From UHGV virus genome UHGV-0314755: DNA of 10,374 nt. One strand, written 5' to 3'. The number at the start of each line of letters is the position of its first letter. The stretch's first letter is position 1. Below the pieces are notes generated by a model. That model did no database searches. It had not been told where the DNA came from and worked only from the letters and a program-made list of their open reading frames with translations. Source of the DNA: a virus. Positions 5,560 to 8,302 of the stretch are shown piece by piece. The translations under genes were made by a program, and so were the position numbers.

Positions 5560-6000
5560 CTATTCACAATTAGTGATGGCGTATGTATCAAATATATTGC
5601 CATCACTAAATACATACCTATACTCAATCTCTCCGCCAAGGTGAATAAATGCTTTCATTTGCCTGTTGGAGCAAATGCTCGATTTTGAATAATTTCGCAT
5701 TACACTCTTTAATTTATTTTCTAAGGTTACATCACCATTATAAACTTTTGATAAATAGCTGTTGTTGTAATTAAGATGCGCTACAACTAAGAGTTTGTTT
5801 AGTATTGCATTTATTGAAACAATAGACATATTATCATTCAATTTTATGGGAAGTGACTTTCCTGCTTCTGATGCAATTTTGTTTGCATGTGCACACATAT
5901 CCTCATTTATTAAATTCTTAAAACATATGTCGTTTGCAAACGAAAAAATTGGTAGGATAAACAAAACGGTAGCTGTAATAGCGTGCATCGGCTTAATCAT
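5560..6000 (-). CDS. Small secreted (periplasmic) protein of unknown function, 146 aa; AT-rich cargo gene
   Basis: Only long ORF in a strongly AT-rich segment. N-terminus MIKPMHAITATVLFILPIFSFA/ND has the shape of a Sec signal peptide (positive n-region, hydrophobic core, A-x-A-like cleavage site). The mature part has 4 Cys and is N/K/I/S-rich. An AAGG motif lies 7 nt upstream of the ATG at 6000 (minus strand). The stop (5560-5562) abuts the stop of the 1129-aa gene on the other strand. No recognised family. Confidence 0.5.
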   Translation of the reverse strand: MIKPMHAITATVLFILPIFSFANDICFKNLINEDMCAHANKIASEAGKSLPIKLNDNMSIVSINAILNKLLVVAHLNYNNSYLSKVYNGDVTLENKLKSVMRNYSKSSICSNRQMKAFIHLGGEIEYRYVFSDGNIFDTYAITNCE

Positions 6001-6012
6001 TAGGTGACCTTT

Positions 6013-6462
6013 ATGTTCAAGAAGATGATCAACAGATTAATCGGTGGTAAGGAGGTTAGCAATAAAATTCAACCTCTTATCTTTAAGGATAACTTTTCAG
6101 CTTTTGAGTATGCGTGTAAGTATCTTGACACAAGCCTTTCAGCCAATAAACCAATGCCAGCCATCATCATACCTGGTCCCAGTGGGGAACAGCCAGTTTT
6201 GCTGGATTCTGGAAGACAAAGGGCAATGCTGAAGGTGTGCTCAGCTGATGGTGGATTTTTTGTTATTGCCGATTCATCTTACAGCAAAGGACCAAAGCTG
6301 AGGATTGGTGATCTTGTTGCTTGGTTGCCTGTGAGTTATGCCGAAGAATTAACGGATAAAATAGAAGATCCTCGCTCCGCTATGGTTGGCTTTATATTGG
6401 GAACCATTCATCCTGAACTAACATCTACTGGCTGGAAGGGTAAAGAAAGATTTCGCAAGTAG
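6013..6462 (+). CDS. Hypothetical cytoplasmic protein, 149 aa (cargo gene)
   Basis: ORF open from GTG 6004; the preferred start is ATG 6013, with SD AGGTGA (6002-6007) and a 5-nt spacer. Ends TAG at 6460-6462 and is followed immediately by an intrinsic terminator. No TM segment or signal peptide. No recognisable family by eye. Confidence 0.6.
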   Translation: MFKKMINRLIGGKEVSNKIQPLIFKDNFSAFEYACKYLDTSLSANKPMPAIIIPGPSGEQPVLLDSGRQRAMLKVCSADGGFFVIADSSYSKGPKLRIGDLVAWLPVSYAEELTDKIEDPRSAMVGFILGTIHPELTSTGWKGKERFRK

Positions 6463-6475
6463 CGTGACATGTCAC

Positions 6476-6500
6476 AGGCCGCTTTCGCGGCCTTGTTTTT
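6476..6500 (+). terminator. Rho-independent terminator for the plus-strand transcript (after the 149-aa gene)
   Basis: 7-bp GC-rich stem AGGCCGC/GCGGCCT with loop TTTC (6476-6493), followed by TGTTTTT (6494-6500). It is preceded by a perfect 12-bp palindrome, GTGACATGTCAC (6464-6475). Confidence 0.7.
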
Positions 6501-6537
6501 AACGAATGCCACCGCCGCCCGGGTGGGAATCCGCAGA

Positions 6538-6563
6538 CACAAAAAAGCCCGCGCCGCGGGCTT
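6538..6563 (-). terminator. Rho-independent terminator for the minus-strand transcript (after the 210-aa gene); with the previous feature it forms a convergent terminator pair
   Basis: Palindrome AAGCCCGCG-C-CGCGGGCTT (6545-6563) followed on the minus strand by a T-run (plus-strand AAAAAA at 6541-6546). It lies 4 nt downstream of the TAA stop of the 210-aa gene (6567-6569, minus). Confidence 0.7.
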
Positions 6564-6566
6564 CTA

Positions 6567-7199
6567 TTAATGCAGTTTATCTTTGCTTATAACCAGTAGT
6601 CTGTGGGTATGCACATCTTTATCACTGCCCCAACAGAAATCAGCCCACTGGCTATAGAAATCATCCCATGATGTCATGAAGCTAAGAGGTCTATCTTCTT
6701 CAGAGCCATCTGAAACGTATACATTATATCCCGGGGTGTTTATAGCCCAAGAAATCATTCTTTCCCAGAATCTTCTCCCATCGATTGTTTGTTGCTCATC
6801 AGATACAACGATCGCATATTGCTCTAGGAAGAACTGAAAAAAAATCTGAGGCAAACCATGAACAGCACGGTCATGAATAACATTAGGCGTACGCCATACC
6901 ATGATCTGCGTACATGTTCTTTTGGCTTCGACGATATCTTCCCGAAAGATTAACTTAACCGCATACACCGTTTCTGGAGTATCGCTGGTAGTAATCATTC
7001 TGTAATGATCGCCATTACAAGATTTTACAAGGCGATAACCATAAGGTGTTGTGAATCCCGGAAGAACGAAATCAACCACACCTTTCGCTAAGTAGCTTTC
7101 GGTGTGACTAGTGTTCTTCTCAGACATGTTCAGTTTTCTATCGAAATCTGCTTCTGGGATAATGTATGGCATCGCTTTTCTTGTTGTATTTGTTTTCAT
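6567..7199 (-). CDS. Hypothetical protein, 210 aa (orphan cargo gene, Trp/aromatic-rich C-terminus)
   Basis: Strong SD GGGAGGA 5 nt upstream of ATG 7199 (minus strand). Clean ORF ending at a good terminator. No TM segment or signal peptide. Operator copy 1 (TTACC-N5-GGTAA) lies 60 bp upstream, overlapping a TAATAT -10-like hexamer. No family recognised; an R-x5-H motif (RTPNVIH) is noted but is too short to interpret. Confidence 0.7.
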   Translation of the reverse strand: MKTNTTRKAMPYIIPEADFDRKLNMSEKNTSHTESYLAKGVVDFVLPGFTTPYGYRLVKSCNGDHYRMITTSDTPETVYAVKLIFREDIVEAKRTCTQIMVWRTPNVIHDRAVHGLPQIFFQFFLEQYAIVVSDEQQTIDGRRFWERMISWAINTPGYNVYVSDGSEEDRPLSFMTSWDDFYSQWADFCWGSDKDVHTHRLLVISKDKLH

Positions 7200-7258
7200 T
7201 TCGTCCTCCCATGTTTGGCTACAGGACGCGTTTTGAAGGGAAGATTAAAAACGCTTTC

Positions 7259-7273
7259 TTACCCGTAAGGTAA
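7259..7273. promoter_or_regulatory. Operator copy 1: palindrome TTACC-cgtaa-GGTAA upstream of the 210-aa gene
   Basis: Exact TTACC(N5)GGTAA. It overlaps a candidate minus-strand -10 (TAATAT, 7278-7273), with a weak -35-like TTGGCG 18 bp further upstream (7302-7297). It is one of three copies in the window, all in non-coding regions upstream of or between minus-strand genes. Confidence 0.5.
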
Positions 7274-7315
7274 TATTACGCGAATCTACATCACATCGCC
7301 AATGATTATTTTAAA

Positions 7316-7338: not shown

Positions 7339-8049
7339 TCAGAAGAACCCTGCCTTGTCGTTGATGTACTCCGCGTGCGTCTGGATATCACGCAGGCATT
7401 TGCTCACACCGACGATGTAGCAGAACATGGTGGTCAGCTCCGCCGCCGCGCCCGATACGTCGTGCCCGTCTTCCTGTAACTGGTTCAGCAGATTCATCAG
7501 CAGTGAGTTTTCCGTCAGGCCGAGAACACCAGACGGAGAATGAATCAGGCTGCGGTAGCCGGGCTTCAGTGGGGCGCTGTAGGTTTTGTTCTCTATCTTC
7601 ATTGCCTGCATCACTGCTGATGCTGTGGCGTTGGCTACCTGGTCGGCAACCATCTTTATGCGTTCTTCCTGCGGGAGCGAGTTTTTAATGTAACTTCCTG
7701 TGCGGCGGATCTGAGGAAGAACCTCACCTGTAACCCATTTACGAAAGCGGTAGGGGATAGTGCCTGGTGTTACTGCATCGCGGCAGCGGAGGATCAGTGT
7801 GTAGAGGCCTGACTCGGAGATGATGTTGATCTCTTTTACTCGGCTGTCAAAAATTGCACGATGTTCATGCCCTATGTTGAACATAGACCTTTCATCATCA
7901 TCCAGTTTTTCAAGTGATTGGGTGACGTTTTGGATACGCAGCGCACTACAAACGTCTTGGGCTACAAACCATGGTTGGCCATCGATAATGATGGAACGGA
8001 TAGGGTTAACAGATTCAAATTTGAAGATGGCAGTTTGAGCATTAGCCAT
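7339..8049 (-). CDS. ant: Phage antirepressor, 236 aa: Bro-N-type N-terminal domain plus Ant-type C-terminal domain
   Basis: N-terminus MANAQTAIFKFESVNPIRSIIIDGQPWFVAQDVCSALRI matches the Bro-N / P22-antirepressor N-terminal signature (F.F....IR....DG.PWFVA.DVC..L). Preferred start is ATG 8049, with SD GGAGA and an 8-nt spacer; the ORF track's extension to 8064 uses a GTG with no SD. The C-terminal ~65 aa are about 45% identical to the 85-aa protein encoded at 8365-8622. Confidence 0.85.
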   Translation of the reverse strand: MANAQTAIFKFESVNPIRSIIIDGQPWFVAQDVCSALRIQNVTQSLEKLDDDERSMFNIGHEHRAIFDSRVKEINIISESGLYTLILRCRDAVTPGTIPYRFRKWVTGEVLPQIRRTGSYIKNSLPQEERIKMVADQVANATASAVMQAMKIENKTYSAPLKPGYRSLIHSPSGVLGLTENSLLMNLLNQLQEDGHDVSGAAAELTTMFCYIVGVSKCLRDIQTHAEYINDKAGFF

Positions 8050-8060
8050 GGTGGTTATCT

Positions 8061-8145
8061 CCACTTAGTGATTTTAATCACCACCGCAACGCCAATTACT
8101 GGTGGTGAACTGGACAAGGTTGGCGTACCGGCCTAAGTGGTACCG
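8061..8145 (-). promoter_or_regulatory. Candidate promoter/operator region of the antirepressor gene
   Basis: Minus-strand -10-like TAAAAT (8076-8071), about 20 nt upstream of the ant start region. An 8-bp inverted repeat, TCACCACC (8078-8085) / GGTGGTGA (8101-8108), sits over the -35 region. The 8-mer CCACTTAG occurs at 8061-8068 and 8234-8241, and inverted (CTAAGTGG) at 8133-8140. GTACCGGC is directly repeated at 8125-8132 and 8140-8147. Promoter assignment is tentative. Confidence 0.35.
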
Positions 8146-8205
8146 GCGTCCTTTCGGACCCCTGCCCAGCCCACCATAATTCGGATATAGCTGTGCTTAA
8201 CGCAT

Positions 8206-8228
8206 AAAAAAACCACGTCTGGCGTGGT
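8206..8228 (-). terminator. Rho-independent terminator on the minus strand, between the small Ant-like gene and the antirepressor gene
   Basis: Minus strand reads ACCACG-CCAGA-CGTGGT followed by TTTTTTT (plus-strand A7 at 8206-8212). It lies downstream of two further hairpins (8247-8262 and 8262-8283). Confidence 0.55.
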
Positions 8229-8302
8229 ATGCGCCACTTAGTAACTCGGGACGCCAATCCCGGCACTGGATTTTGCCAGTGCCCGATTACTATGGCACAA
8301 GA

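Follow-up and report, generated by a model that had tools for sequence, protein, structure and literature searches.

A 12-bp perfect palindrome of epsilon15/phiV10-like prophages, GTGACATGTCAC (here called P), is probably a previously undescribed control site, as judged from a comparison of the genomes that carry it. P was found at the same three syntenic sites in five genomes, those of phiV10, epsilon15, Tyrion, SPN1S and the closest E. coli prophage; the copies lie 0-27 nt past a stop codon, and the flanks diverge around them. The explanation proposed here, which as a whole is given a little less than an even chance, is that P would serve as the site for one conserved sequence-specific factor that acts at operon boundaries and controls or reinforces termination. 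The two terminators and the small cargo gene next to the copy studied are normal parts of an epsilon15/phiV10-type prophage.

The window, that is, the whole 10,374-nt stretch of UHGV-0314755 that was analysed, is from a Uetakevirus (epsilon15/phiV10-like) prophage of E. coli, of which it makes up the cargo region. It follows the epsilon15/phiV10 gene order of large virion proteins, cargo slot, leftward Bro-N unit and tail fibre, and near-identical DNA was found in Uetakevirus members. In terL, the closest prophage shares 94-99% identity with epsilon15 and phiV10, and the prophage adjoins yfgI-ppk-purN, loci which we take to lie outside Ter. The window region is matched in 523 of 5,426 complete E. 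coli genomes, and its exact gene combination was found in no E. coli genome. The locus of P is the right-hand end of the rightward transcription unit for virion-structural and cargo genes, and the features that the first-pass annotation had placed there were all located as claimed (Table 1).

Table 1. Features of the window around P, with positions counted from the first nucleotide of the window.
Feature	Position	Strand	Details
146-aa low-GC cargo gene, phrog_8772	5560..6000	-	ORF list; CDS annotated in relatives
149-aa cargo gene, phrog_9944	6013..6462	+	ATG 6013, TAG 6460-6462
P, copy 3, 12-bp palindrome	6464..6475	.	One base after the 149-aa stop
T1, putative intrinsic terminator of the rightward structural/cargo unit	6476..6503	+	Stem 6476-6493, T-run 6494-6500
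Remnant of the gene for a 53-aa signal-peptide protein, phrog_14503	6499..6537	-	Last 12 codons and stop
T2, putative intrinsic terminator of the leftward 210-aa/Bro-N unit	6538..6565	-	Stem 6565-6543, T-run 6542-6537
210-aa cargo gene, phrog_1349, unknown function, terminated by T2	6567..7199	-	CDS annotated in IHE3034
Bro-N antirepressor gene with upstream RNAs, leftward immI-like unit facing T1/T2	7339..8295	-	

The genes for the 146-, 149-, 53- and 210-aa proteins are placed after the last virion gene and ahead of the tail-fibre gene. They are low in GC, variably present and flanked by terminators, as are morons, the terminator-bearing cargo genes of phage late regions, and as morons they are nothing out of the ordinary. 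The 146-aa product (phrog_8772, E 2e-79) carries an N-terminal signal peptide (translation MIKPMHAITATVLFILPIFSFA...); GC is 0.30 at 5700-5999 within its gene, whose start is 12 bp from that of the divergent 149-aa gene. In the leftward unit, the antirepressor gene occupies 7339-8064 (Pfam Bro-N, E 3.6e-19), and a P1-type C4 antisense RNA, C4 target sites and an isrK-like RNA were found upstream of it at 8098-8295, with Rfam scores of 66 bits for C4, 67 bits for isrK and 44 bits for c4-a1b1.

The 149-aa ORF is a real gene and part of the exchangeable cargo. A Shine-Dalgarno sequence, AGGTGA, precedes it at 6002-6007, and the same 450-nt CDS is annotated in RefSeq relatives (WP_000473936.1). 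The first-pass annotation had called its product an orphan of no recognisable family, a description that has to be withdrawn: residues 1-149 match positions 1-149 of the phrog_9944 profile, i.e. over the full length (E 1.4e-92), and the protein has 308 cluster representatives at E<=0.001. Homologues often form the C-terminal domain of longer proteins, in which Zeta_toxin/AAA_33 and a zinc ribbon occur as fusion partners; no function was assigned from these partners because they are too sporadic. Modelling with AlphaFold gave a pLDDT of 92.7 from a 79-sequence alignment and of 48.5 from only 13 close homologues, and a beta-barrel of OB-fold-like topology with an N-terminal helix is predicted. 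The family and structure check that had been suggested for this protein thus yielded a profile family and a confident model, but a Foldseek search of the model against PDB and BFVD returned nothing at E <= 0.001, and the protein had no match in Pfam, NCBIfam, PADLOC or PDB sequences.

T1 and T2 have the sequence characters of intrinsic terminators and lie downstream of stop codons. T1 consists of 7 pairs (6 GC) with the loop TTTC followed by TGTTTTT, and starts 13 nt past the TAG of the 149-aa gene; T2 consists of 10 pairs (6 GC) with a loop of 3 followed by TTTTTTG, and its stem starts 1 nt past the stop of the 210-aa gene. Among 21 terminator-like sites in the window, compared with 8.8 +/- 2.9 in shuffles, T2 ranks 1 and T1 ranks 2. 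Both hairpins appear in the predicted folds, with a fold z-score of -2.7 for T2. T1 and T2 are kept in relatives, and in phiV10 and epsilon15 the corresponding hairpins carry terminator annotations, which supports the earlier view of two opposed terminators separating the rightward from the leftward units. The T1 stems are invariant across six genomes and the loops vary. The T2 module follows other genes in OZ040490 and TL-2011b. By these features T1 appears to be an ordinary intrinsic terminator, and T2 may also act weakly in both directions, since an A-run precedes it on the plus strand.

The pair had also been described as one designed unit, a bidirectional terminator, and this does not hold, since IHE3034 and TL-2011b have a complete 53-aa gene between T1 and T2. 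In the window, the tight spacing of T1 and T2 results from a deletion of about 190 bp, seen as a gap at the 53-aa gene in the alignment against IHE3034, F2_407 and TL-2011b. The remnant translates as VSADSHPGGGGIR, compared with ...RSADSRPGGGGIR at the end of the full 53-aa protein; the rest of the gene is deleted, with the junction at 6537|6538, and the same junction was found in 23 of 124 sampled contigs. The 37-39 bp between T1 and T2 are therefore not a spacer but the 3' end of a deleted gene, a detail missed in the first-pass annotation. An extended minus-strand hairpin in which P pairs with this 3' end (-25.4 kcal/mol, z -3.3) was considered and dropped, because the partner is not conserved at site 3 of epsilon15 and SPN1S, nor at sites 1 and 2.

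That a perfect palindrome follows the stop codon of the 149-aa gene, separated from it by a single base and taking no part in the T1 stem, agrees with the earlier description. The window holds no further copy of P even with 2 mismatches allowed, and contains 4 perfect 12-bp palindromes; in 55 of 200 window shuffles a match to P within 2 mismatches occurred. Alone, a single palindrome of 12 bp carries no significance in 10 kb of sequence, so the significance of P rests on comparison. The search for the palindrome elsewhere in the genome, which had been suggested as a check, gave three perfect copies in the closest prophage as against 0.14 expected, a number reached in 0 of 100 shuffles; the chance expectation for a given 12-mer is about 0.002 per 40 kb. 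In phiV10, one of the three copies has a mismatch (site 1, C10T). P is absent from phiSG1 and from a Pseudomonas phage, both of which share terL only. Conservation of the palindrome in relatives, set beforehand as the refuting test of its importance, was found far more strongly than expected, in samples made up mostly of closely related enterobacterial prophages. Relatives fetched via the terS locus were 99-100% identical and uninformative on variation. A scan of bacterial contigs for CGTGACATGTCACA gave mainly chance matches, and only those in Enterobacterales and Morganellaceae were informative. P is annotated in none of four phage records, and the exact palindrome is absent from the literature searched, which did not include the 2007 epsilon15 genome paper.

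The three sites share a position at the ends of transcription units. At site 1, P overlaps the stop codon of the gp49 gene, the last early-right gene, just upstream of terS; at site 2 it follows a leftward moron facing terL; and at site 3, which holds the window copy, it follows the last rightward structural or cargo gene. The terS-terL module thus has copy 1 on one side and copy 2 on the other. The intrinsic terminators that come after copies 2 and 3 differ from each other, and P is the longest invariant block at these two sites, where hairpin loops, spacing (0-4 nt) and tails differ. At site 3, at least 8 unrelated cargo genes have their ends within P or 0-41 nt ahead of it, and three of the upstream genes take their stop codon from P's own TGA. 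Site 1 was followed through 80 gp49-like loci picked without reference to P, with 37 distinct left and 45 distinct right flanks; P was perfect in 73 and always lay on the stop codon. What comes after P at site 1 is a terminator, a gene start or a LexA-box promoter, and the coupling of P to termination is thus not universal, since a terminator does not always follow. At site 2, moreover, rightward (late) transcription reaches the hairpin first and P after it.

Two further readings of these positions were rejected. With GTGACA as a -35 element, copy 1 could be read as a promoter, GTGACA-18-CATGAT, but other subfamilies do not keep the -10, and sites 2 and 3 have none. P was also considered as a physical genome end, since the GenBank records of phiV10 and Tyrion open inside copy 1; a simpler account is that the records were opened at the last gene's stop, which lies inside P.

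The substitutions found in P indicate how it may be read. The two central bases took 10 of 19 substitution events (p = 3.5e-4), and the outer GTGA/TCAC took 6 of 19, fewer than expected (p = 0.002). Such a pattern fits recognition of two half-sites, and the full dyad symmetry, which includes the central CATG, favours a dimer bound to duplex DNA. The substitution pattern would be compatible equally well with a 4-bp RNA hairpin closed by a tetraloop, and 3 of the 6 outer-position changes, namely A4G (site 2), C10T (phiV10 site 1) and C12T (an extra SPN1S copy), are G-U-compatible in the transcribed orientation.

In the proposed explanation, the one conserved factor would most readily be a phage-encoded dimeric DNA-binding protein, and its action would provide insulation among three sets of genes, namely the late genes, the leftward morons and the antirepressor unit. 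P would double as a joint for cargo-gene swaps, because it is the only sequence common to all members in these intergenic regions. The best guess for the factor is gp49, since the gp49 stop codon lies inside copy 1; it remains a guess from position and annotation. gp49 is a conserved 112-aa Zn-ribbon protein (phrog_536) annotated as a transcriptional regulator, small and basic, with an arginine-rich N-terminus, MAKSAAERKAAQRARQ, and a C-terminal Cys cluster; it has no match in Pfam, NCBIfam or PDB. A more specific proposal, considered unlikely in this full form, is that P and the gp49-like protein make up an undescribed, family-specific system of termination control. Here the small regulator would read the 12-nt dyad, as DNA or RNA, after stop codons at three operon boundaries, and the adjacent terminators would insulate in the lysogen and switch to read-through in lytic growth. 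Such a system would do the work of lambda N/nut or Q/qut with parts that are unrelated to them.

P may instead act as RNA, a small hairpin GUGA-CAUG-UCAC bound by a phage antiterminator in the manner of nut/boxB, with gp49 again the candidate; this is possible but rather unlikely. On leaving the early-right operon, RNA polymerase would turn termination-resistant; it would then pass the terminator ahead of terS and subsequently T1, in the direction of the tail-fibre and lysis genes. The order of stop codon, P, hairpin and T-run along the terminator polarity at sites 3 and 2, and at site 1 of many members, is consistent with this, as is the placement of copy 1 between the last early gene and the late genes, where Q/qut lies in lambdoid phages. 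The variants fall mostly in the would-be loop (positions 5-8), the three stem changes retain G-U pairing in the transcribed strand, and gp49 has the arginine-rich and Cys-rich ends described. Yet a 4-bp stem is marginally stable, no compensatory double changes occur among the variants, an RNA hairpin has no need of a palindromic loop, and 3 of 3 strand-consistent transitions amount to p = 0.125 only. The site 2 copy follows the hairpin as late transcription meets it, gp49 has no detectable similarity to the N or Q families, and Rfam, even at permissive thresholds, gave no family at 6464-6565. It is quite improbable that P is mainly a recombination joint, through which co-infecting phages and prophages exchange cargo, either with the phage RecET system working on short stretches of homology or with a nuclease or recombinase that is site-specific. 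Homology does break 0-7 nt from the left edge of P in at least 7 of 8 upstream gene classes at site 3, and 0-2 nt from its right edge in many downstream classes at site 1; the terS-terL module lies between two copies, the window's gene combination is unmatched in E. coli, and these phages encode RecE/RecT-type proteins. However, 12 bp is very short for homologous exchange, no nuclease or recombinase apart from the integrase is common to all members (HNH genes are sporadic), and joints are equally expected to cluster at P if it is the only selected, and thus the only conserved, intergenic sequence. The conservation of the sequence itself is also left unexplained.

A very improbable alternative is that P is bound by a host nucleoid protein, as a matS-like site for MatP or an SBS-like site for SlmA, and links the prophage to chromosome organisation or cell division. 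Its favourable points are the exact matS half-sites, the length and outer GTGA/TCAC of the SlmA site, the unchanged sequence across phages of different enterobacterial hosts and the presence of copies in intergenic DNA of the Providencia chromosome. These Providencia copies, however, lie beside hisIE and rpoC, which differs from a Ter-restricted distribution, and the exact placement at stop codons is unexpected for a host nucleoid site; the spacer and position 5 of P, compared below, also disagree. Last, P might have no function of its own and hitchhike with a terminator or gene end in a recently spread module, a reading close to refuted. Contigs chosen by an exact T1 match are indeed ~97-100% identical over the whole module, and conservation within them is for that reason uninformative. 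But three copies stand beside three different hairpins, and P stays fully conserved among phages of E. coli, Salmonella and Enterobacter that have flanks too different to align.

The favoured reading, a factor-bound site at operon boundaries, would matter beyond this locus. Much work has been done on epsilon15 and phiV10 as model and typing phages, and few prophages are commoner than their relatives in E. coli, Salmonella, Klebsiella and Citrobacter. The occurrence of P three times per genome, absent as it is from four annotated records, points to a regulatory layer at operon boundaries that is undescribed for this family. If P controls termination, it would account for late transcription crossing the cargo and antirepressor region, as well as for the insulation of cargo genes in the lysogen. 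P is furthermore a precise landmark for cargo swaps, which helps moron annotation and the engineering of insertion sites.

Among known palindromic sites, P most resembles those of two host proteins. The 13-bp MatP site of the E. coli Ter macrodomain, matS (GTGACRNYGTCAC), has half-sites GTGAC and GTCAC identical to those in P, and is likewise a palindrome with a change-tolerant centre; the P variants GTGACACGTCAC, GTGACAGGTCAC and GTGACCAGTCAC keep the half-sites. It differs in having a 3-bp spacer and being spread over Ter, whereas P has a 2-bp spacer and sits at prophage stop codons and terminators. The pattern GTGAC[AG]N[TC]GTCAC (PMC3603311; matS also PMC6907758) had no match in the window or the five phage genomes, P being GTGAC-AT-GTCAC, and prophages are reported to be without matS (PMC3603311). 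The SlmA binding sequence, GTGAGTACTCAC, is also a 12-bp perfect palindrome with outer GTGA...TCAC, both shared with P, but its inner four bases are GTAC and those of P are CATG. SlmA requires G, T, A and G at positions 1, 2, 4 and 5, prefers a pyrimidine at 6, and loses much of its binding on a change of the G at position 5 (PMC3020112). P reads G, T, G, A, C, A at positions 1-6, and thus has C at position 5.

The arrangement of P, as distinct from its sequence, recalls phage systems. In lambda, antitermination depends on nut/boxB for N and qut for Q, with the regulator gene at the early-late boundary. P is similarly a short dyad placed between the last early gene and a terminator ahead of the late genes, it recurs at further terminators along the late region, and its neighbour encodes a small basic Cys-rich protein annotated as a transcriptional regulator. 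Unlike nut or qut, P lacks a boxA, a pentaloop on a 5-bp stem and the promoter-proximal architecture of qut; as it can form only a 4-bp stem with a 4-nt loop, it does not fit the pattern of a nut/boxB or a qut site, and the likeness may be taken as a lead, not as a test. "Boundary" or "linker" sequences mark the mosaic joints of lambdoid phages, and promoter-stem-loop cassettes (PeSLs) flank shuffled genes in T4-type phages. Compared with these, P is much shorter (12 bp), perfectly palindromic, fixed at three per genome and itself neither promoter nor terminator; as in these, a short conserved regulatory sequence lies at the joints of exchangeable modules, with unrelated cargo genes abutting it.

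The 12-bp palindrome GTGACATGTCAC, here called P, is a conserved cis element: each genome has it three times, at operon and module boundaries, right after stop codons. Site 1 lies just upstream of terS, over the TGA codon that closes gp49 (112 aa, phrog_536, labelled 'transcriptional regulator'), the last early-right gene; site 2 lies 4-27 nt past the stop of the terL-facing leftward moron and 4 nt ahead of a leftward terminator hairpin; and site 3, the copy in the window, comes 0-2 nt ahead of the terminator T1, past whichever rightward gene, structural or cargo, is the last. At sites 2 and 3, a predicted intrinsic terminator comes after P in the terminator's own direction. A search for the palindrome elsewhere in the genome, as suggested in the first-pass annotation, found exactly three perfect copies in the 49 kb of the closest prophage, E. 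coli OZ040490, where 0.14 would be expected and none of 100 shuffles reached three. P was found at the same syntenic sites in phiV10 (with a second perfect copy beside another terminator), epsilon15, Enterobacter phage Tyrion, Salmonella phage SPN1S and the E. coli prophage, the only imperfect copy across three sites in these five genomes being phiV10 site 1, with one mismatch. Sodalis phiSG1 and a Pseudomonas phage, which have terL alone in common with the group, contained no copies.

An exact match to the T1 hairpin was used to collect 124 contexts of copy 3: about 104 have P ahead of T1, and in 17 (IHE3034 type) a different sequence takes its place. At least eight unrelated genes terminate just before or within P at site 3. 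Measured from the hairpin, their stops are at -11 in three gene classes, which use the TGA within P, and at -16, -18, -22 and -53 in others; cargo genes are swapped exactly at P's edges. Alignments showed P as the longest invariant block at sites 2 and 3, while loops, spacers, tails and upstream genes vary. Furthermore, 80 gp49-like loci were picked independently of P, with left flanks of 37 distinct kinds and right flanks of 45; in 73 of them the copy is perfect. P always sits on the stop codon there, and what comes next may be a terminator (of several different sequences), a gene start with its ribosome-binding site, or a promoter with a LexA box. The earlier guess of a functional palindrome is upheld and considerably extended. 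P is annotated in none of the four phage records examined; that of epsilon15 details operators, IHF sites, RNase III sites and stem-loops, yet leaves P unmarked. Among the papers searched, none contains the sequence, and P appears to be a family-wide element not previously described in the sources searched.

Features of the window around P copy 3 and the leftward immunity region
Feature	Position	Strand	Remark
149-aa ORF	6013-6462	+	good Shine-Dalgarno
P copy 3	6464-6475		palindrome
T1 stem	6476-6493	+	predicted terminator; T-run directly after
53-aa gene remnant	6499-6537	-	last 12 codons and stop retained
T2 stem	6565-6543	-	predicted terminator; T-run directly after
Bro-N antirepressor gene	7339-8064	-	
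C4 antisense RNA, a1/b1 target sites, isrK-like RNA	8098-8295	-	upstream of Bro-N gene

By DNA and annotation comparisons, the window belongs to the temperate podoviruses of genus Uetakevirus, the epsilon15/phiV10 group. Two large rightward genes encode virion proteins of 710 aa and 1129 aa (the latter DUF919); small low-GC genes come next, as a block, and the leftward Bro-N gene after them, an order also seen in phiV10, TL-2011b, epsilon15 and the prophages of E. coli OZ040490, F2_407 and IHE3034. The interval from the last virion gene to the tail-fibre gene is a hypervariable slot; part of 5560-7300 was matched in 523 of 5,426 complete E. coli genomes, and the exact gene combination of the window in none of those searched. 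The P1-type C4 RNA (66 bits), its a1/b1 targets (44 bits, slightly below the gathering score) and the isrK-like RNA (67 bits) together make up an antisense immunity module of the P1/P7 immI type, here in a podovirus prophage. A minus-strand 146-aa gene ends at 5560, abutting the stop (ending 5559) of the plus-strand 1129-aa virion gene, with no terminator separating the two at this junction. Within 5560-6013 the start codons of the divergent 146-aa and 149-aa genes are 12 bp apart, so that the promoter of one must sit within the coding sequence of the other; plus-strand promoter-like sites occur at 5597-5624 (10 of 12 matches) and 5748-5777.

The first-pass coordinates of the 149-aa ORF, the palindrome and both terminator stems were all correct, and the gene and the two terminators are ordinary moron architecture of a known phage family. 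T2 and T1 rank as the best two among 21 terminator-like sites in the window (8.8 +/- 2.9 in shuffles), fold predictions recover both hairpins, and the phiV10 and epsilon15 records label their equivalents as terminators. In IHE3034, F2_407 and TL-2011b, a minus-strand gene lies between T1 and T2, its stop codon overlapping T1's T-run; it encodes a 53-aa protein with a signal peptide and a match to phrog_14503 ('membrane associated protein; moron'). The window has lost about 190 bp of it at the blunt junction CCGCAGA/CACAAAAAAGCC, leaving VSADSHPGGGGIR and the stop, where the full protein ends in RSADSRPGGGGIR. An identical junction occurs in 23 of the 124 sampled viral contigs and also in OZ040490, but there beside another downstream gene. 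The tight convergent spacing of T1 and T2 is therefore a deletion by-product: the pair still separates two transcription units, as first described, but is not a designed bidirectional unit. In another lineage (L334/L335, 5482-5560), the homologue of the 149-aa gene has three elements after it: a P with one mismatch, GTGACACGTCAC; a T1 hairpin lacking the 3' half; and a hairpin of T2 type between an A-run and a T-run. On this evidence a second, independent deletion merged both predicted terminators into one bidirectional terminator.

The 149-aa protein, initially taken for an orphan, matches phrog_9944 over its whole length, and a profile search returned 308 cluster representatives at E<=0.001. 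Homologues with 57-99% identity, one of them in Cedecea, occupy the same slot of related prophages. In many of the 308 this domain forms the C-terminal part of a longer protein, and a few have a Zeta-toxin-like kinase or zinc-ribbon domain fused to it, which hints that the domain may act in toxin-like or defence-like contexts. A distant homologue, P0043 (332 aa), joins an N-terminal Zeta-toxin/AAA_33 kinase domain to a domain of this type; another has the zinc ribbon. A confident AlphaFold model (pLDDT 92.7, 79-sequence alignment) predicts an N-terminal helix and a beta-barrel, and no match was found in Pfam, NCBIfam, PADLOC or PDB sequences.

Further copies were observed. A fourth copy in SPN1S, GTGACATGTCAT (L330 26722-26733), has one mismatch; it overlaps the Rz spanin gene's end, where the lysis genes give way to the attP/integrase region. 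In prophage-like DNA of Morganellaceae (Morganella, L378; Proteus, L414), another conserved gene ends in TAA GGT, with P next; the stop-codon-then-P arrangement thus is not confined to the Enterobacteriaceae phages of this analysis. One Providencia burhodogranariea genome has three copies of the 14-mer CGTGACATGTCACA in AT-rich intergenic DNA (L394 827-840, L401 7313-7326, L412 7439-7452), one copy between convergent hisIE and GntR-family genes and one about 200 nt downstream of rpoC, with the motif TCAATTGGTTAT near two of the three; since about 0.03 copies are expected by chance, it is maybe a host repeat element or host-factor site. At site 1 of some gp49-like subfamilies (L503, L504, L526 and similar), a near-consensus sigma-70 promoter (TTGACT, 17-nt spacer, TACTGT) directly follows P, about 5-50 nt past it, and overlaps the consensus-like LexA box TACTGTTTATGTATACAGTA, which predicts an SOS-controlled promoter at the early-late boundary of these phages. 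In the OZ040490 prophage (L247 7652-7722), RefSeq starts terS at 7696, and a strong terminator-like hairpin, GCCGCCAACTATGGCGGC with a T-run after it, lies at 7705-7722 inside the first terS codons; the epsilon15 record labels the homologous hairpin a terminator and places it ahead of terS, and the E. coli start is probably called too early.

Nineteen independent substitution events were counted at syntenic P sites: ten at central bases 6 and 7 (an excess, p = 3.5e-4), three at positions 5 and 8, and six in the eight outer bases 1-4 and 9-12 (a deficit, p = 0.002). Variants GTGACACGTCAC, GTGACAGGTCAC and GTGACCAGTCAC retain both half-sites. The pattern is as would be expected for a dimer reading two GTGA(C) half-sites, and it would also fit an RNA stem of 4 bp closed by a tetraloop. 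Of the six outer changes, three (A4G, C10T, C12T) stay G-U pairs in the transcribed orientation, but such small numbers (p = 0.125) do not decide the matter. Recognition as duplex DNA is modestly preferred, given that the dyad symmetry is full and takes in the central CATG. A model is tentatively favoured in which a phage-encoded dimeric protein would bind P at operon boundaries and control or reinforce termination and insulation there, recombination at P being a consequence of its conservation. The best candidate is gp49, which matched no known families; the 149-aa gene is missing from phiV10 and epsilon15 and is therefore not P's universal partner.

That P acts once transcribed, as a small RNA hairpin loading an antiterminator, is a doubtful though serious competitor. 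P differs from lambda N/nut and Q/qut in having no boxA/boxB or qut architecture, but resembles them in that site 1 follows the last early gene ahead of a terminator and the late genes, and that P recurs ahead of further terminators; gp49, with its Cys cluster and arginine-rich N-terminus, also recalls these systems. Mimicry of a host MatP or SlmA site is very improbable, and a P with no function at all is scarcely credible. The half-sites are exactly those of the matS pattern GTGAC[AG]N[TC]GTCAC (PMC3603311, PMC6907758), but P is not a matS because its spacer is 2 bp, not 3, and prophages have been reported without matS (PMC3603311). The SlmA site GTGAGTACTCAC equals P in length and shares the outer GTGA/TCAC, but SlmA requires G at position 5 (PMC3020112), where P has C. 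A role primarily as a recombination joint is unlikely; under the favoured dimer-binding model, exchange at P would follow from its conservation. Conserved boundary sequences occur at mosaic joints of lambdoid phages, and regulatory cassettes flank shuffled genes in T4-type phages; P, at which unrelated cargo genes join exactly, resembles both.
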